The notes beneath the pieces are model-generated. The model did not search any database and was not told the DNA's origin. It saw only the letters and a program-made list of their open reading frames with translations. A DNA stretch of 64,000 nucleotides from Chloroflexota bacterium (GTDB lineage Bacteria; Chloroflexota; Anaerolineae; Anaerolineales; Villigracilaceae): assembly GCA_016223135.1 (NCBI GenBank), contig JACRPQ010000005.1:176873-240872 (forward strand), written 5' to 3'. Shown in pieces: positions 4,616 to 61,178 of this stretch. Position 1 is the first letter of the stretch. The number at the start of each line of letters is the position of its first letter. The translations under genes were made by a program, and so were the position numbers.

Positions 4616-7423
4616 ATGAGTAAGGCATTTCGTTATTTGTTTTCTGCTGTTGTCATCATGACCTTGCTGCTCGGGTCCATGGCAATGGCGCCAGCCGCGC
4701 GTTCAGATGCCTCGGTGCATTTGAAGAGCGGCTCTTTTATTCCCGCGCAAAGCAATCCTGCGGCAGGGAGTCAAAAGTATTACATCGTTCAACTCGCCGG
4801 CCCGGTCCAACAGGCGTGGAAGGATGCGCTCGCCGCCGAAGGTGCGGAAATCCTCTATTACCTGCCGGACTTCGCCTTCAAAGTGCGGATGAACCCCTCC
4901 ATCGCCAGCCGCGTGGCGAAGTTAAACTTCGTCAGCGGGGTGACTGCCTATCGGCCGGAATTCAAGTTCGGGTCCAGCCTGACGCGTGACGGTCAAGTAC
5001 GCCTGTACCGTGTCCGCATCGAGCGCGGCGCCGACTTTGGTCTTGTTCGTTCTTTAGTCGCTCAAAGCGGGGCGCAGGTGGTCGGTTTCGATAATGACAT
5101 CCTGGTTGTCGCCGCCAACAGCGCCCTTGTGGATGCCCTCGCCCAAGTGGATGATGTTGCATCCATCAGCAATTTTGTGATGTACGAAACCTTTGCCGCT
5201 CCTGCCGCTCCCAAGTCCAATGACTATGCCGTGACCAACATCATCGGCGCGGCAGCGGCGCACGCGCGCGGCTATAACGGCTCCACCCAAATCGTCGGTG
5301 TGGCAGATACGGGTCTCGGCGGCGGCACTCCCACCACCGCCCATCGCGACATCAACGGACGCGTCGCTGCCATCTACAACTGGCGCGGCGTGGACGATAG
5401 CTGCTGGACCATCACCGACGATGGCGCCGTGGACGTGGACTCCGGTCACGGCACGCATACCGCCGGCTCAGTATTGAGCGCAGGCGCGCCGAATGGCATT
5501 GGCAAAGGCTCTGCCCCTGCCGCGCAGTTGGTCTTCCAGGCAGTCGAAAACTGGGCGACCATGAAAGGCATCTGCGCCCTCTATTACCCCAACGGCTACT
5601 ACTTAACCGGTCTGCCCTCGGACCTCAATCAGTTGTACCAGCAGGCATATAACGCCGGCGCGCGCATCCACAGTAACTCGTGGGGTTCCGCCGCCGCAGG
5701 CGATTACACCGTCGAGTCCGTCCAGTCCGACACCTTCATCTGGAACAACCGCGACATGCTCATCACCTTCTCGGCGGGCAATGAAGGCACGGACGCCAAC
5801 AGCGACGGCGTGATTGACAGCGACTCGATGGGCTCACCCGCCACCGCCAAGAACGTCCTGACCGTGGGCGCGAGCGAAAACCAACGCAGCGACGGCTACC
5901 CCTGCGACACCAGTCTTTCCTACACCGCCTGCGCTTCGCAGGGCGGCGTCAACAACATCTTCACGTGGGGCGCGGCGTGGCCCTCCGATTATCCCGCCAA
6001 CCCCATCAAGGATGACGTTTCCGCCAACAACGCCGGGCAAATGGCGGCATTCTCCAGCCGCGGACCGACCGACGACAACCGCATCAAACCGGACGTGGTC
6101 GCCCCCGGCTCGTGGATTCTCTCCACCTACTCGGACATGTACCAGCAAGGCTACGACGCCTCGCCGAACCCCAAAAACAACGCCTGGCAATACGACGGCT
6201 ACGGCTTCCCGTATGACCAGTACTACAAATACCTGAGCGGCACGTCCATGTCCAACCCCCTGACGGCGGGCGGCGCGGCAGTCGTCAAGGATTACTACAA
6301 CAAGGCATACAGCGTCAACGCCACCGCGGCGCTTGTCAAAGCCACCCTCATCAACTCCGCCGTGGATATGCTCGACGAAAACAACGACGGCGTGAACGAC
6401 AACGACTTCCCCATCCCCAACGTCCACGAAGGCTGGGGACGCATCAACCTCGACGCGGCGACCGACGGGACGATTCAGTTCGTGGATGAAGGCACAGGCT
6501 TGAGCACCGGCGGAAGCGCCGCCTTCAGCGTGACCACCACCGGCGGACCGCTCAAAGTCACCCTGGTGTGGACCGACTATCCCTCCACCGACACCGCCGC
6601 CATCAACCTCGTCAACGACCTCGACCTCACCGTCAGCGGACCCAGCGGCGCGTTCCTCGGCAACGTCTTCTCCGGCGGTTGGAGCGCAACAGGCGGTTCG
6701 GCAGACCGGCGCAACAACGTCGAGAACGTTTACATCCAAAACCCCGCGGCGGGGACGTACACCATCACGGTCAGCGGTTTCAACATCCCCAACGGACCAC
6801 AGAAATTCGCCCTCGTGGTGGACGGTGGAACGCTCGGCTCTGCACCTACGCCGACGCCTGCTCCCACCAGCACGCCCACCAGCACCCCTGCGCCTACCAC
6901 CAGCACCGGCTACCTCTCGCCCTCCGCCAATGCCGCGGTGACTTCCGGCTCGGGTGACAACAACGGCTACGAAAGCAGCCCCGCCAACGCCTATGCCAAT
7001 GATGGCGCTGTGGCAACCGACCTCAACAGCGGCACTGGCACCAGCACCACCTACACCAGCACCCAGAAAGACCGCCACGTCTTCTACAACTACGGCTTCA
7101 GCATTCCTTCCGGCGCCACCATCACCGGCATCGAGGTCCGCGTGGATGCCCGCGCCGATAAAGCCTCCGGCACCCGCCAGATTTACGTCCAATTCTCGTG
7201 GGATGGAGGCGTCACTTGGACCACCGCCCTCAGCACCCCCAACCTGGGCACCAGCGAAGCCACCTACATCCTCGGCGGAACCACCAACACCTGGGGACGC
7301 ACCTGGAGCGCCAGCGACTTCAGCAACGCCAACTTCCGCGTGCGCGTCATTGACGTCTCCAGCAACAATGCCCGCGACTTCTACCTCGACTGGATTGCCG
7401 TCAACGTGACGTACCAGCCATAG
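4616..7423 (+). CDS. Secreted S8 (subtilisin, KP-43-like) serine protease with C-terminal extra domains
   Basis: Signal peptide; catalytic triad motifs VADTGL, HGTHTAGS, GTSMS; DLDL...NNVE domain; PT-rich linker; RBS GAGGAG favours ATG 4616. Confidence 0.92.
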   Translation: MSKAFRYLFSAVVIMTLLLGSMAMAPAARSDASVHLKSGSFIPAQSNPAAGSQKYYIVQLAGPVQQAWKDALAAEGAEILYYLPDFAFKVRMNPSIASRVAKLNFVSGVTAYRPEFKFGSSLTRDGQVRLYRVRIERGADFGLVRSLVAQSGAQVVGFDNDILVVAANSALVDALAQVDDVASISNFVMYETFAAPAAPKSNDYAVTNIIGAAAAHARGYNGSTQIVGVADTGLGGGTPTTAHRDINGRVAAIYNWRGVDDSCWTITDDGAVDVDSGHGTHTAGSVLSAGAPNGIGKGSAPAAQLVFQAVENWATMKGICALYYPNGYYLTGLPSDLNQLYQQAYNAGARIHSNSWGSAAAGDYTVESVQSDTFIWNNRDMLITFSAGNEGTDANSDGVIDSDSMGSPATAKNVLTVGASENQRSDGYPCDTSLSYTACASQGGVNNIFTWGAAWPSDYPANPIKDDVSANNAGQMAAFSSRGPTDDNRIKPDVVAPGSWILSTYSDMYQQGYDASPNPKNNAWQYDGYGFPYDQYYKYLSGTSMSNPLTAGGAAVVKDYYNKAYSVNATAALVKATLINSAVDMLDENNDGVNDNDFPIPNVHEGWGRINLDAATDGTIQFVDEGTGLSTGGSAAFSVTTTGGPLKVTLVWTDYPSTDTAAINLVNDLDLTVSGPSGAFLGNVFSGGWSATGGSADRRNNVENVYIQNPAAGTYTITVSGFNIPNGPQKFALVVDGGTLGSAPTPTPAPTSTPTSTPAPTTSTGYLSPSANAAVTSGSGDNNGYESSPANAYANDGAVATDLNSGTGTSTTYTSTQKDRHVFYNYGFSIPSGATITGIEVRVDARADKASGTRQIYVQFSWDGGVTWTTALSTPNLGTSEATYILGGTTNTWGRTWSASDFSNANFRVRVIDVSSNNARDFYLDWIAVNVTYQP

Positions 7424-25212: not shown

Positions 25213-25258
25213 CCCTCACCCCCTACCACTCTCTACCCCTCTCCCTATGGGAGAGGGG
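25213..25258. repeat. REP family CCCTCACCCC..CCCCTCTCCC-NNN-GGGAGAGGGG
   Basis: Hairpin at 25236-25258. Other copies at 35579-35605, 58823-58872, 59455-59496, 63958-63982. Confidence 0.8.
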
Positions 25259-55627: not shown

Positions 55628-56611
55628 TTAGGCTTTGCCCAACACCATCGCGAGCAATGCCATTCTAACGTAAAGACCGTATTCCATCTGACGGAAATAC
55701 GCGGCGCGGGGATCGTCGTCGAAGTCCATGCTGATTTCGGTGACGCGCGGAAGCGGGTGCATGACGATCATCTCCTGTTTGGCGGCTTTCATGATTTCGG
55801 GGTCAATCACGTACGCGCCTTTGACCTTTTCGTAATCGGCGGGATCCTCGAAGCGTTCCTTCTGGACGCGCGTGACGTACAGCACGTCGGTTTCGGGCAG
55901 GACTTTGTCGAGTGTGCTGTATTCGGCTTGAGGGATGCCCTTCGCCGCGACTTCGTCCATCACTTCCTTGGGCATTCGCAAAATATCGGGCGAGACGTAG
56001 TTCAACCTGACGTGGAACAGCGAGAGCAAACGCGCCAGCGAGTGGACGGTGCGCCCGTATTTCAAATCGCCGAGCATGGTCACGGTCAGCCCGTCCACCA
56101 CGCCGACGCCGAGTTCCTCGAAGATGGTGAACAGGTCGAGCAGCGCCTGGGTGGGATGTTCGCCCGTGCCGTCGCCGGCGTTGATGACGGGTTTGCGCGC
56201 CGCCTTTGCCGCAATCGCCGCCGAGCCCGTTTCGGGATGGCGCAGCACGATGACATCGGCATAACATTCGAGCGTGCGGACGGTGTCGGTCAGGCTCTCG
56301 CCTTTCGTCACCGAGGAATACTTCACTTCATTGATGGGGATGACCGAGCCGCCCAGCCGCTCCATCGCGGCGGTAAACGACGATGAGGTGCGCGTGGACG
56401 GTTCGTAAAACAGATTGGCAAGAATTTTTCCTTTGAGCAGGTCGAACGTCCCGACGCGCTCGACCATGCCGCGCATCTCATGCGCCACGCCGAAGATGTA
56501 TTCCAAATCGGCGCGGTTGAACTGTTTGACGGATATGATGTCCTTGCCATACCAGTCGGCTTGTTTGTTTTCGCCGAAGGGCAGGTAAGGGGAGGGGGAT
56601 TGGGTGGGCAT
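55628..56611 (-). CDS. pyrB: Aspartate carbamoyltransferase catalytic subunit
   Basis: [32 protein letters not shown]. Start at ATG 56611 behind AGGAG. Confidence 0.96.
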
Positions 56612-56710
56612 GGATACTCCTTGGTAATTGGTAAGTGGTAATTGGTGATTGGTGATTGGAGACTCGCTTCTTTCTTCGGGTGAGGCGGATTCGGTTTCGA
56701 TGGGCATTTT

Positions 56711-58013: not shown

Positions 58014-58349
58014 TCATTCAAAGAGATGATTCGCCAGCGGGATGACATTGATGACCGGCTCCTCGTAGGGATGCACGCGTTTTATCACGCGAATCGCATC
58101 CTTCACCAGTTCGCGCCGGCAATTGACTTCGAGTTTGTATTCCGCCACTTCGTTGATTTTGCCCTCCTCGCCCTCGAAGGGATTCGCGCCCGGCAGGGGA
58201 CGGAAGAAGCCGCGCACGGGGGTAAGGGCGACGCAATGGTCGTAGTTGCCGATCACGCCCACGCCGATTTCCGAGAGCGCGTCGGCGAGTTTCAGAGCAT
58301 GGTCTTGAGGGACGAAGATTTCGAGTTTTACGTGTGTGAAGTTTTGCAT
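58014..58349 (-). CDS. Stand-alone YqfO/Nif3 middle-domain (PII/CutA-like) protein
   Basis: KLEIFVP, G.G.IGNYDHC, FRPLPGANP..G, E.KLEV, HPYEEP. Confidence 0.82.
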   Translation of the reverse strand: MQNFTHVKLEIFVPQDHALKLADALSEIGVGVIGNYDHCVALTPVRGFFRPLPGANPFEGEEGKINEVAEYKLEVNCRRELVKDAIRVIKRVHPYEEPVINVIPLANHLFE

Positions 58350-58353
58350 GGTA

Positions 58354-59427
58354 TTACAACCTCACATTCCTTCCATATCCCTGCTCTGCTAATACCTTTC
58401 CGTCCTCAAATGCAGTCCTGCCGCGCAGGACGACCTTTCTTACTTTACCTTTGATCTTCCAGCCCTCGAAGGGAGTCCAGCCGCAGCGGGTGAATTGGTC
58501 GGCGGCGCGGATTTCGTATTCGGCGGTCTCGTCCACTTCGACCCAAGTTTCGGGCTGCTCGGGGAGGTTGAAGATTTTGCGCGGGTTGATGACGCACTTT
58601 TGAATCAAATCGTCTAAGGTCAAACGTCGAAGGGCAACGGCGGTAAGGAGGAGGGGAAGCAGAGTTTCCAGCCCCGGGAAGCCGGGCGGGGGATTGTCGG
58701 AGTCTTTTTCGGCGAGGGTGTGCGGGGCGTGGTCGGTGGCGAAGCAGTCAATCACGTCGAGGTTATCCCACAAGGCGTCCACGTCTTGCTGTGTGGCGAG
58801 GCGAGGGCGGACTGTGAGTCTGCCCTCACCCCTGCGCCCCTCTCCCGGTGGGAGAGGGGATGGGGGCGAGGGTAAAAACAAATGATGCGGGCAGACTTCG
58901 CACGTCACTTTGACGCCGCGTTCTTTCGCCGCTTTGATGAGGAGGATTTCCTCCTTCAATGAGACGTGCGCGATATGGACAGGGCGGTCGTAGAGGGCGG
59001 CGAAGAGTATCCCTGCCGCCATCGTCCGCGATTCGGAGTGCAGGACGATGGGATAATCCTTTGGAAACTTTTGGAAGTGCGGCATCCACAGGGTCATGTC
59101 GTCGAGGCGCAGTTCGCCGAAGGTGGAGTCGAGGTACATTTTCAAGCCTGCGGCGCGTGGAGCAAGGGCGGCAGCGGCGTCGGCGTTGTCGGGACCGGCG
59201 CCGAGGAATTGGGCGTAGTCGCAGCGCGCTTTTCGTTTGGCGGAATCCAGCGCGAGGTCCAGAGTGGAGGCGTTGAAGATGGGCGGCTTGGTGTTGGGCA
59301 TGGCGAGGATCATGGTCACGCCGCCGGCAAGCGCGGCTTGGGTGACGGTGTCCCAATCTTCTTTGTGGGTTTGCCCTGGTTCGCGGACGTGGACGTGGGG
59401 GTCAATCAGGCCGGGGAGTTTGAGCAT
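58354..59427 (-). CDS. pyrC: Dihydroorotase, CAD-like type
   Basis: PGLIDPHVH.REPG, MPNT.PP, GLKMYL, CEVCPHHL, ATDHAPH, GFPGLET, WTPFEG. Confidence 0.95.
   Translation of the reverse strand: MLKLPGLIDPHVHVREPGQTHKEDWDTVTQAALAGGVTMILAMPNTKPPIFNASTLDLALDSAKRKARCDYAQFLGAGPDNADAAAALAPRAAGLKMYLDSTFGELRLDDMTLWMPHFQKFPKDYPIVLHSESRTMAAGILFAALYDRPVHIAHVSLKEEILLIKAAKERGVKVTCEVCPHHLFLPSPPSPLPPGEGRRGEGRLTVRPRLATQQDVDALWDNLDVIDCFATDHAPHTLAEKDSDNPPPGFPGLETLLPLLLTAVALRRLTLDDLIQKCVINPRKIFNLPEQPETWVEVDETAEYEIRAADQFTRCGWTPFEGWKIKGKVRKVVLRGRTAFEDGKVLAEQGYGRNVRL
58823..58872. repeat. REP palindrome inside the pyrC CDS
   Basis: CCCTCACCCCTGCGCCCCTCTCCCGGTGGGAGAGGGGATGGGGGCGAGGG, same family as intergenic copies at 25213 and 59455; encodes PSPPSPLPPGEGRRGEG. 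Confidence 0.85.
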
Positions 59428-59450
59428 GGGATGGGTTCCAAGCGTCAGGT

Positions 59451-59603
59451 TTATCCCTCACCCCTGCCCTCTCCCATGGGGAGAGGGGGGATGGGGCAAA
59501 AAAAGAGAGCCGCTTGAGCGACTCTCTGATTTCCAAAAGTAGAAATAACGTTCCCGAAGAAGTGTTGTCGAAATAATCCTTTGAGGCGGGGCAGTTTGTA
59601 CAT
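59451..59603 (-). CDS. Putative pyr leader peptide (PyrL-like, 50 aa)
   Basis: MYKLPRLKGLFRQHFFGNVISTFGNQRVAQAALFFCP...; ATG 9 nt after the -10 box; reads through the terminator. Confidence 0.5.
   Translation of the reverse strand: MYKLPRLKGLFRQHFFGNVISTFGNQRVAQAALFFCPIPPLPMGEGRGEG
59498..59527 (-). terminator. Attenuator terminator in the pyr leader
   Basis: Minus strand AGAGAGTCGC-TCAA-GCGGCTCTCT followed by a T run, between the promoter and pyrC. Confidence 0.8.
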
Positions 59604-59611
59604 TGCGGCGA

Positions 59612-59639
59612 ATTTTACGCCGATTCGGGAGAGTGTCAA
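59612..59639 (-). promoter_or_regulatory. Sigma70 promoter of the pyr operon
   Basis: Minus strand TTGACA-N16-TAAAAT. Confidence 0.75.
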
Positions 59640-59777
59640 GGTGGGAGAAAAAATCGCTCGAAACAGGATCAGCCGTCCCGTAGGAATGAAGCGGGGATAA
59701 ATCTCATGATGTTTGTCACTAAAGGGCGTCAAATGCGGGTGATATAATCCCGCCATCATTTTGCAAGGAGAAGGAAG

Positions 59778-61178
59778 ATGGCATATCAAAACGTCAAAGT
59801 CCCCGCAGGCGGGGCAAAGATTTCCATCAAGGATGGTAAATTACAGGTTCCCGATAACCCGATTATCCCGTTTGTGGAAGGCGACGGGACCGGGCGCGAC
59901 ATCTGGCGCGCGTCGGTGCGTGTGTTCGACGCGGCGGTGGAGAAGGCATACGGCGGCAAGCGCAAGATTCATTGGATGGAAGTGTACGCCGGCGAGAAGG
60001 CTTTCAAGTTGTTCAACACCTGGCTGCCCGATGAAACCACCGATGCATTCAAGGAATTCCTGGTGGGCATCAAGGGTCCGTTGACCACACCCATCGGCGG
60101 CGGCATCCGTTCGCTGAACGTGGCGCTGCGCAAACTGCTTGACCTCTACGTCTGTCAGCGTCCGGTGCGTTATTACAACGGCGTGCCTTCCCCCGTTAAA
60201 CACCCGGAATACGTGGACATGGTCATTTTCCGCGAGAACACGGAAGATATTTACACGGGCATTGAATTCCAATACGGCACGGAAGAGAACAAGAAATTCA
60301 AGGATTTGCTGAAAGAGGCTTTCCCGAAGGAATACGCCAAGATACGCTTCCCCGATACGGCGGGAATCGGCGTCAAGCCCGTTTCGGTGGAAGGGACGGA
60401 GCGGCTGGTCCGTGCGGCGATTCAATGGGCGCTGGCGAACAAGCGCAAGAGCGTGAACCTCGTCCATAAGGGCAACATCATGAAATTCACAGAAGGGGCA
60501 TTCAAGGACTGGGGTTACGCGCTTGCCAAGCGTGAGTTCCGCAATGAGATTGTGACCGAGCGCGAGAGTTGGATTTTGGGGAACAAGGAAGCCAATCCGA
60601 ACTTGAGCGTGGAAGAAAACGCCCGCATGATCGATCCCGGCTACGATATGATGGCGCCCGATAAGCAGGCGGAAATCCGCAAGGAAGTGGAAGAGGCGCT
60701 GGCGCTGTGGGAGACGCACGGCGGCGGCAAGTGGAAGAGCAAACTGCTCATCAAGGATTCGATCGCCGATGTGACGCTGCAATTTGTGTTGATCCGCCCG
60801 CGCGATTATGATGTGATTGCCACCCTCAACCTGAATGGCGACTATCTCTCGGATGCGCTCGCGGCGCAGGTGGGCGGGATTGGCATCGCCCCGGGCGCGA
60901 ACATCAACTACGAGACGGGTCACGCCATCTTCGAGGCGACTCACGGCACCGCGCCAAAATACGCCGACCTCGACAAGGTCAACCCTGGCTCGGTCATCCT
61001 CTCCGGTGAGATGATGTTCCGCTACATGGGCTGGACCGAAGCCGCGGACCTGATCGTCAAGGGCATGGAAGGCGCAATCAATGCCAAGACGGTGACGTAT
61101 GATTTTGCCCGTTTGATGGAAGGCGCGAAGGAAGTCAAATGCTCCGAGTTTGGGGATGCGGTTATTAGTCACATGTAG
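59778..61178 (+). CDS. icd: NADP-dependent isocitrate dehydrogenase
   Basis: [49 protein letters not shown]. Confidence 0.97.

Follow-up and report, generated by a model that had tools for sequence, protein, structure and literature searches.

How a bacterium of the phylum Chloroflexota adjusts pyrimidine synthesis to its needs is the question raised by the region upstream of pyrC in a 64,000-nucleotide stretch of DNA (the window) from the Chloroflexota bacterium assembly GCA_016223135.1 (order Anaerolineales; contig JACRPQ010000005.1, positions 176,873 to 240,872). On the minus strand, this region carries a promoter, a 50-codon open reading frame (ORF) that begins shortly after the -10 box, and an intrinsic terminator over which the ORF extends. 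We think it rather probable, judging from the sequence and its conservation, that these parts form a ribosome-coupled attenuator of the pyrBI type at the head of the pyr cluster, which would have evolved independently and would be initiated by a leaderless or near-leaderless start.

Conserved leader unit upstream of pyrC

A scan for PyrC homologues, with one genome kept per species, gave 80 relative loci of about 13 kb, or 81 with the window. The relatives are Anaerolineales or unclassified Chloroflexota metagenome-assembled genomes (MAGs), and their PyrC identity is 74 to 92%. A leader unit was present upstream of pyrC and on the same strand in 58 of the 81 loci (window counted), and one further unit, in locus L043, was recognised by eye; all carriers are uncultured MAGs. 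The unit consists of TTGACA, a spacer of 16 to 17 nucleotides (nt), a -10 box, an ATG, an ORF of at least 22 codons, a hairpin of the form GAGAG(U/C)C...GGCUCUC, and 6 to 9 U. TTGACA was present in every member found, under a search pattern that demanded TTGAC. At the same place as the window's -10 box, the relatives have TAAAAT, TAGAAT or TATAAT. When 51 leaders were aligned, no columns were invariant other than those of the ATG and of the two arms of the terminator, GAGAG(U/C)C...GGCUCU; apart from these, the ORFs cannot be aligned across the family, and the bases flanking the ATG vary. The earlier note had named conservation of the ORF and terminator in relatives as a check on its reading, and with both kept upstream of pyrC in 58 of 81 related loci, the unit is more than a chance arrangement.

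The elements that the earlier note had described on the minus strand of the window are all in place, namely, TTGACA-N16-TAAAAT, an ATG closely following it without a Shine-Dalgarno (SD) sequence, and a 50-codon ORF that runs through U-rich tracts into a strong terminator before pyrC (Table 1). The promoter agrees with the consensus at 11 of 12 positions, no other promoter-like site is found within 59000-60200 (mean of 0.4 in shuffles), and the leader terminator is the better of two terminator-like sites in the same scan. The -10 box and the ATG are separated by 8 nt, with the A as the ninth base, and no SD or GGAG-like sequence was found upstream of this ATG. When the window leader was folded, the terminator hairpin formed, and the whole leader had a z score of -3.85 relative to shuffles. 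The encoded peptide is MYKLPRLKGLFRQHFFGNVISTFGNQRVAQAALFFCPIPPLPMGEGRGEG; codons 1 to 25 constitute the conserved part, and the remainder passes through the terminator into an element resembling a repetitive extragenic palindromic (REP) sequence. In contig JBMOML010000058.1 (GCA_049325175.1, a Chloroflexota MAG that matches the window), no gene is called between icd and pyrC, and the gene collection that was searched has no such leader peptide on record as a called gene product.

Wherever the unit occurs, it stands ahead of pyrC or of a gene for an NCS2 uracil-permease-like protein. It lies 3 to 179 nt before pyrC in 39 loci, and in about 10 loci it precedes an NCS2 permease gene (PF00860; best NCBIfam match, uracil permease) that is followed by pyrC. 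All 55 matches to the hairpin sequence in the window and the loci are upstream of pyrC, and no further leader units were found elsewhere in the 64-kb window or in the approximately 800 kb of loci. A metagenome scan with the hairpin pattern alone returned mostly generic terminators; the full signature (promoter, ATG, and ORF ending at the stem) was present in 8 of 120 matches, six of them before pyrC and two before a uracil-permease-like gene. The order of the cluster, with icd in the opposite orientation followed by the leader, pyrC ... pyrB-pyrF-pyrE ... pyrD, is conserved. In the window, the leader is followed on the minus strand by pyrC, a CutA1-like gene, a PD40-repeat gene, pyrB, pyrF, pyrE, a DinB-family gene and pyrD.

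The position of the unit relative to pyrC bears on the possibility that it regulates nothing and is an independent small gene for a short hydrophobic or basic peptide with its own terminator, or an incidental ORF, with pyrC served by a separate promoter. The 70 nt between the T-run and pyrC in the window would be compatible with this, as would the relatives without a leader, in which pyrC is predicted to be expressed from its own TATACT promoter. However, the pyrC ATG follows the T-run by 3 nt in L005, 6 nt in L002 and 10 nt in L042, which leaves no room for a separate promoter, and pyrC in these loci must therefore be reached by readthrough. The link of the unit to pyrimidine genes only also speaks against an unregulated small gene, and the peptide is poorly conserved, with a variable C-terminus, yet the frame and the stop codon's position relative to the hairpin are kept. 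We consider the absence of regulation very unlikely.

In six relatives (L004:5374-6002, L007:352-627, L009:5394-5947, L017, L036 and L046), an opposite-strand two-gene cassette lies between the putative attenuator and pyrC. Its genes have weak, below-cut-off Pfam matches to the BrnT toxin and the BrnA/CopG antitoxin, and the gap between the terminator and pyrC in these loci is 450 to 680 nt.

Predicted leader translation and RNA structure

The distance between the -10 box and the ATG was 8 nt in 28 loci, 9 nt in 24, 10 nt in 5 and 13 nt in 1 (n = 58). With transcription starting at the usual 7 to 8 nt after the -10 box, this geometry would give a 5' untranslated region (UTR) of 0 to 3 nt. In 15 relatives without a leader directly upstream, pyrC itself has the leaderless geometry TATACT-N6-ATG, which indicates that leaderless starts are used in this lineage. 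By these sequence signals, pyrC in Anaerolineales is either leaderless or preceded by the putative attenuator. In a published survey, 4 of 12 Chloroflexi genomes were found to have leaderless genes, which made up approximately 5% of genes (PMC3160421). Because the spacing of the leader ORF is N8 to N10 rather than N6, "near-leaderless" is the accurate term, and a 5' UTR of 1 to 4 nt appears as likely as a strictly leaderless start. The proposal of a near-leaderless ORF without an SD sequence is backed on comparative grounds by the invariant ATG 8 to 10 nt after the -10 box.

The reading frame that this ATG opens is preserved. Between the ATG and 8 nt before the stem, frame 0 contained no stop codons in 43 loci, compared to 44 and 22 in the +1 and +2 frames, which were open in only 12 and 26 of the 43 loci, respectively. 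Insertions and deletions within the ORF keep the frame, with 24 nt gained in L018 and L035 and 12 nt lost in L042, and in L051, where the usual ATG has become ATA, an in-frame replacement ATG follows 6 nt further downstream. Both the uninterrupted frame and the invariance of the ATG speak for translation of the leader ORF. The ORFs form several mutually unalignable classes, for example, MYRLPRLKRLF.QHLFG.IVS, MKNRFF.DL.P.P..L.FSFP and MVTFLHFRDFLFEPAGL, as well as several singletons, and the C-termini vary freely among relatives. No runs of regulatory codons common to the family peptides were found. The synonymous share of codon differences was 14% and 18% in the two main classes, compared to 8 to 15% in the shifted frames. 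Since synonymous changes are enriched only weakly, at 14% against 10%, the act of translation appears to matter rather than the peptide, and the pattern fits selection on translation itself and not on the peptide product. A functional small protein was considered and judged unlikely, as selection at the amino acid level is weak.

The stop codon was located by its first base relative to the first G of GAGAG. It was never upstream of -8 relative to the stem (58 of 58 loci). In 18 loci the stop falls at -8 to -1; in 13 it falls at +11 to +13, as a UAG codon within the hairpin loop; and in the remaining 27, which include the window with its stop at +73, it falls at +30 or beyond. The distance from the ATG to the stem across the family is 68 to 95 nt. 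In every member, a ribosome at the end of the ORF, or one still translating, would therefore cover part of the 5' arm of the hairpin. In Escherichia coli, termination fell from approximately 90% to less than 10% when a stop codon was shifted from 28 to 5 nt ahead of a terminator, and this effect depended on translation (PMC4824070). According to the same study, amino acid attenuators separate leader ORF and terminator by more than 20 nt, and the pyrBI terminator is located within its leader ORF (PMC4824070). By its stop-to-terminator geometry, the leader family belongs in the pyrBI regime.

The terminator is the only structure that the leaders have in common. RNAalifold analysis of the 51 leaders, and of 25 leaders of class 1, returned the terminator only, plus a weak 4-bp helix in class 1. 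When the 3' arm of the terminator was removed, the leader bodies of six members had z scores of +1.7, +0.9, +2.2, -0.2, +0.6 and -1.7 relative to shuffles; four of the six were clearly less stable than shuffles, and none was significantly more stable. With the terminator as the sole conserved structure and an unstructured leader body, there is no antiterminator or aptamer. A 9-bp hairpin, GAUUAUUCC/GGAAUGAUU, was tried as a conserved antiterminator or pause hairpin and rejected, as it occurs in a subset of class 1 only and not in the window or class 2. The inverted repeat CGGCG/CGCCG around the -10 box was likewise rejected as a structure or operator, as relatives exchange CGCCGC for CGGCGC without compensation. 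No Rfam family, the PyrR site (RF00515) included, matched the window at the gathering score. The relaxed search of 59300-59900 (E ≤ 10) gave chance microRNA or small-RNA matches to the palindrome only, with no PyrR site and no pyr or riboswitch family, in line with the earlier report that the leader strand has no PyrR loop.

These structural results also bear on a riboswitch or other structured RNA sensor and on start-site switching or reiterative transcription. Start-site switching or reiterative transcription is used by E. coli pyrC, pyrD, codBA and upp and by Bacillus subtilis pyrG. A conserved leader with a terminator before nucleotide genes is what an RNA sensor would look like, and class 2 members have AAA before the ATG. 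However, only the terminator is conserved as a structure, the leader body is unstructured, and Rfam gave no match; the expected start lacks a homopolymer of T or C, and no hairpin is present that could hide a ribosome-binding site. We regard this group of mechanisms as highly improbable here.

Proposed pyrimidine signal and competing explanations

The leaders are rich in pyrimidines. Between the ATG and the stem, they contain 33.7% T and 28.9% C, compared to 20.3% T in the pyrC coding sequence of the same loci. At positions -19 to -9 before the stem, pyrimidines make up approximately 72 to 96%, with a single position below 83%; this holds for both main classes and does not depend on the peptide. 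Within the last 35 nt before the stem, a run of at least three T was found in 51 of 54 loci and the motif TTNTTT in 29 of 54, the latter compared to 5.4 ± 2.2 in shuffles. The 3' arm of the hairpin and the U-run form a continuous pyrimidine stretch, CUCUCUUUUUUU. The E. coli pyrL leader (NC_000913.3) has 33.7% T and 28.1% C, with the pyrimidine run UUUUUCUUCCC at -29 to -18; its stem begins 89 nt from the ATG, and its stop codon comes 43 nt after the stem begins. In architecture, the two leaders are close parallels.

The earlier note had pointed out that the window peptide shares LPRLK and FFCP with E. coli PyrL. This is true of the K-12 peptide, MVQCVRHFVLPRLKKDAGLPFFFPLITHSQPLNRGAFFCPGVRR (NC_000913.3), and the alignment score of the two peptides was 37 against a shuffle mean of 22 (p of about 0.006; above 99.4% of shuffles). 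However, the relatedness implied by this likeness did not hold. Of 54 family peptides, only 3 contain LPRLK, all closely related (the window, L001 and L003). FFCP is the translation of UUUUUUUGCC(C), which is the terminator T-run plus GCC, in one of the three frames used by family members. The median score of the family against PyrL was about 20 to 21, equal to the shuffle mean. Since LPRLK is rare, FFCP is derived from the terminator and the family median is at the shuffle mean, there is no homology to PyrL. From the sequences, the terminator-derived part of the likeness is convergence and the rest coincidence.

The geometry proposed in the same note fared better in the comparison with relatives. 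As in the pyrBI leader (pyrL) of E. coli and Salmonella, the leader ORF extends over an intrinsic terminator with no antiterminator, and a U/C-rich tract lies shortly before the hairpin. The composition of the two leaders is almost the same (33.7% T and 28 to 29% C), the distance from the ATG to the stem is similar (89 nt in E. coli and 68 to 95 nt here), and pyr genes are directly downstream. In contrast to pyrL, which has GGAGG, the Chloroflexota leader has no SD sequence and would start within a few nucleotides of the 5' end. In 31 of 58 members, the ORF ends at the hairpin foot or inside the loop, whereas that of pyrL ends beyond the hairpin. The predicted targets are pyrC and/or the uracil permease gene rather than pyrBI, and the hosts are Anaerolineales.

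What the sequences show is which parts are present, how these are ordered and conserved, and beside which genes they lie; from this, we infer a start site, translation, polymerase pausing and a sensed nucleotide as follows. A strong promoter of the sigma-70 type would initiate transcription 0 to 3 nt before an AUG without an SD sequence, and a ribosome would load at the 5' end. The unstructured, pyrimidine-rich leader ORF would extend up to, into or through the intrinsic terminator. When uridine triphosphate (UTP), and probably cytidine triphosphate (CTP), is ample, RNA polymerase would outpace the first ribosome, the hairpin would form, and transcription would stop before pyrC or the uracil permease gene. 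When UTP or CTP is scarce, polymerase would linger in the U/C tract 9 to 19 nt before the hairpin, in the all-pyrimidine 3' arm and in the U-run. The ribosome would then catch up and mask the 5' arm, allowing readthrough into pyrC...pyrB-pyrF-pyrE-pyrD.

A ribosome-coupled terminator could alternatively report translation capacity or growth state, through ribosomes, guanosine tetraphosphate or the initiating ATP, rather than pyrimidine pools. A terminator that is suppressed by a close ribosome does respond to translation speed (PMC4824070), and all members have a GC-rich discriminator. On the other side, the unit is confined to pyrC and the uracil-permease-like gene, and the pyrimidine tract, the pyrimidine-only 3' arm and the U-run are conserved, which points to pyrimidine nucleotides as the signal. 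We view growth-state reporting as quite unlikely.

A further explanation is a trans-acting RNA-binding regulator, PyrR or an analogue, that would act at the hairpin or at heptad repeats found near pyrC, with the ribosome optional. Such an arrangement would resemble the Thermus pyr leader, in which the leader peptide and PyrR are thought to act jointly. The hairpin is invariant in the 51 leaders; conservation of this kind, at the level of sequence, is unusual in an intrinsic terminator, nor is this type of terminator common in these genomes. In addition, pyr-specific heptads abut the starts of pyrC and pyrF in relatives. In-phase repeats of the form (ACYTGRM)n, such as CCTGACA, CTTGGAA and CCTGAAA, reach the pyrC ATG. 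At least two copies were found within 70 nt upstream of the pyrC ATG in 23 of the 81 loci, against a background of 0.05 copies per 70 nt, and the spacing between copies was exactly 7 nt in 42 of 52 cases. In the sampled loci, the heptads are confined to pyr intergenic regions (before pyrC and pyrF), and in the pyrB-pyrF spacer of L006 and L011 they occur in both orientations. Their role could be that of a binding site, or of a translation signal at start codons, most of which have no SD sequence.

PyrR-dependent attenuation in Bacillus and many other bacteria (RF00515) similarly places a terminator in the leader of a pyr operon, which may include a uracil permease gene. However, the leaders described here have no PyrR loop and no antiterminator/anti-antiterminator pair, and there is no PyrR-like gene in the pyr neighbourhood. 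The absence of a PyrR-site match at E ≤ 10, and of an antiterminator that a bound protein could shift, speaks against a regulator. So does the absence of a PyrR-like ORF in the window and the 80 loci of about 13 kb, that is, within ±6 kb of pyrC in the relatives (tblastn, E ≤ 1e-3), in a local search with an approximate B. subtilis PyrR query. We judge regulation by such a factor to be unlikely. We place equally little weight on a two-layer control in Anaerolineales, in which a ribosome race on a leaderless ORF would read UTP/CTP and a pyrimidine-responsive factor would act on the GAGAG.C/GGCUCU hairpin and/or the heptads. If this were true, the factor would be a functional replacement of PyrR without a known counterpart.

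Several points weigh against the proposed ribosome-coupled attenuator. The spacing of N8 to N10 is longer than the N6 of the leaderless starts in the lineage, and hence a short 5' UTR is likely. The sensing of UTP and CTP is probable from composition and analogy only. In E. coli, ribosomes rarely catch up with polymerase within the first 100 nt unless it pauses (PMC4824070), and the ORF spans only 68 to 95 nt up to the stem. The race between polymerase and ribosome does not account for the invariance of the hairpin, which could mark the binding site of a factor. The search for PyrR-like genes covered the window and the pyrC neighbourhoods, and a pyrR gene could lie elsewhere in these genomes. 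Finally, the public RNA data consist of assembled contigs, which are unreliable for the 5' and 3' ends of transcripts.

Among the RNA data, the window organism is represented by one public run, which holds 5% of its words. For L069, where the RNA was available as assembled contigs only, four runs gave long, flat contigs across everything, and four other runs gave fragments. One contig, from run X34, ends at 5818, in the T-run, and another, from run X35, ends at 5804, in the hairpin; in this region (5300-5886), the contigs downstream of the putative attenuator had a lower depth. The ends of these two contigs are at most compatible with 3' ends at the putative attenuator, because the contigs are strandless and overlap the divergent icd promoter or transcript.

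The proposed attenuator also differs from other leader peptide systems. Short leader ORFs that are translated from the 5' end of the mRNA, without an SD sequence, and that control the operon behind them are found in actinobacteria, as in the cysteine-responsive short ORFs of mycobacteria (10.1101/834739) and the ilvBNC leader of Corynebacterium glutamicum (PMC11857589), and the predicted start of the present ORF is of this kind. Unlike the present leaders, these sense an amino acid via codon runs, and C. glutamicum uses alternative hairpins. The Chloroflexota leaders have neither runs of regulatory codons nor alternative structures, and the presumed signal is polymerase speed. The trp, his and leu attenuators likewise combine a leader peptide ORF with an intrinsic terminator, but they need a 2:3 antiterminator and regulatory codons, and their stop codon is placed upstream of the terminator at a distance of more than 20 nt (PMC4824070); none of these three features is present here. 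The literature searched contained no account of a pyr leader of this kind from Chloroflexota. To our knowledge, polymerase-speed sensing through ribosome coupling is established only for the enteric pyrBI leader.

Features of the locus and biological meaning

The features of the window locus and the corresponding features of relatives are listed in Table 1.

Table 1. Features of the pyrC leader region in the window (plain positions) and in relative loci (positions preceded by a locus name)
Feature	Position	Strand	Remarks
Leader promoter, -35 box TTGACA	59634..59639	-	Read from the sequence; in every family member found
Leader promoter, -10 box TAAAAT	59612..59617	-	16-nt spacer from the -35 box
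GC-rich discriminator or initially transcribed stretch TCGCCGCA	59604..59611	-	Read from the sequence; transcription start expected here, 0-3 nt before the ATG
Leader ORF, 50 codons	59451..59603	-	ATG 59603-59601, TAA 59453-59451
Pyrimidine/U-rich tract TTATTTCTACTTTT	59535..59548	-	Presumed RNA polymerase pause region
Intrinsic terminator (putative attenuator)	59498..59527	-	Stem AGAGAGUCGC/GCGGCUCUCU (10 bp at 59527-59504), loop UCAA, then U7 (seven T at 59504-59498)
REP-like palindromic element	59455..59490	-	Between terminator and pyrC; encodes the last 14 codons of the leader ORF; non-conserved
Spacer with degenerate heptad-repeat remnant (ACCTGAC GCTTGGA ...)	59428..59450	-	Abuts pyrC
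pyrC (dihydroorotase, short form, 357 amino acids)	58354..59427	-	First gene of the co-directional pyr cluster
icd (isocitrate dehydrogenase)	59778-61178	+	Divergent
pyrC with TATACT-N6-ATG	L021, L022, L029, L031-L033, L039, L045, L047, L051, L052, L055, L059, L061, L070		
Clear heptads before pyrC	L064:2270-2325, L046:5930-6000, L069:5957-6000		Remnant in the window at 59428-59450
Heptads before pyrF	L001:8530, L006:5885, L011:9562, L064:7317		

The REP-like palindrome, CCCTCTCCC-N3-GGGAGAGGG, is at 59487-59467, and further copies are found in the window at 25237-25257 and, inside pyrC, at 58838-58858; two of the three copies carry a GGGGTGAGG tail. Comparable elements are at the same place in some relatives, among them L001, L003, L014, L040, L050 and L058, and are missing from others, such as L005, L002 and L042. 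The three window copies and the variable presence of the element in relatives bear out the suggestion that a REP sequence was inserted after the terminator and forms the tail of the peptide. The copy inside pyrC is read in frame as PSPLPPGEGRRGEGR. All 17 relatives that were compared have a hypervariable loop, of differing length, at the same site of PyrC, several of them with a similar Pro/Gly-rich, REP-like sequence, and REP-like insertions appear to have a hot spot in this surface loop of dihydroorotase.

Three further observations concern the genes of the cluster. The 357-amino-acid PyrC starts at approximately position 45 to 50 of standard dihydroorotase profiles (MLKLPGLIDPHVH), so that the usual N-terminal segment is missing. 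As the same is seen in the window and all 80 relatives, the short PyrC is a feature of the lineage and not a truncation caused by the leader. The longest ORF for pyrB (55628-56707) encodes 359 amino acids, with a 54-residue N-terminal extension outside the aspartate transcarbamoylase profile; since the public annotation calls a product of 327 amino acids, the true start is probably internal. The CutA1-like gene (58014-58349; 111 amino acids, with weak Pfam and NCBIfam matches) directly follows pyrC here and in 29 relatives. This small protein, conserved inside the pyr cluster, could act in connection with pyrimidine metabolism.

If the proposed attenuator is real, it would be a second, independently evolved case of regulation by polymerase speed and ribosome coupling, in a distant phylum and with a simpler, SD-independent entry of the ribosome at the 5' end. 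It would imply that tight coupling of transcription and translation operates, and regulates, in Chloroflexota, and it would provide a compact natural test case of 100 to 120 nt for coupling from a leaderless mRNA. An unannotated small ORF and an attenuator would be added to many genome annotations. For the Anaerolineales themselves, it would explain how pyrimidine synthesis and uracil uptake are regulated without a PyrR site.

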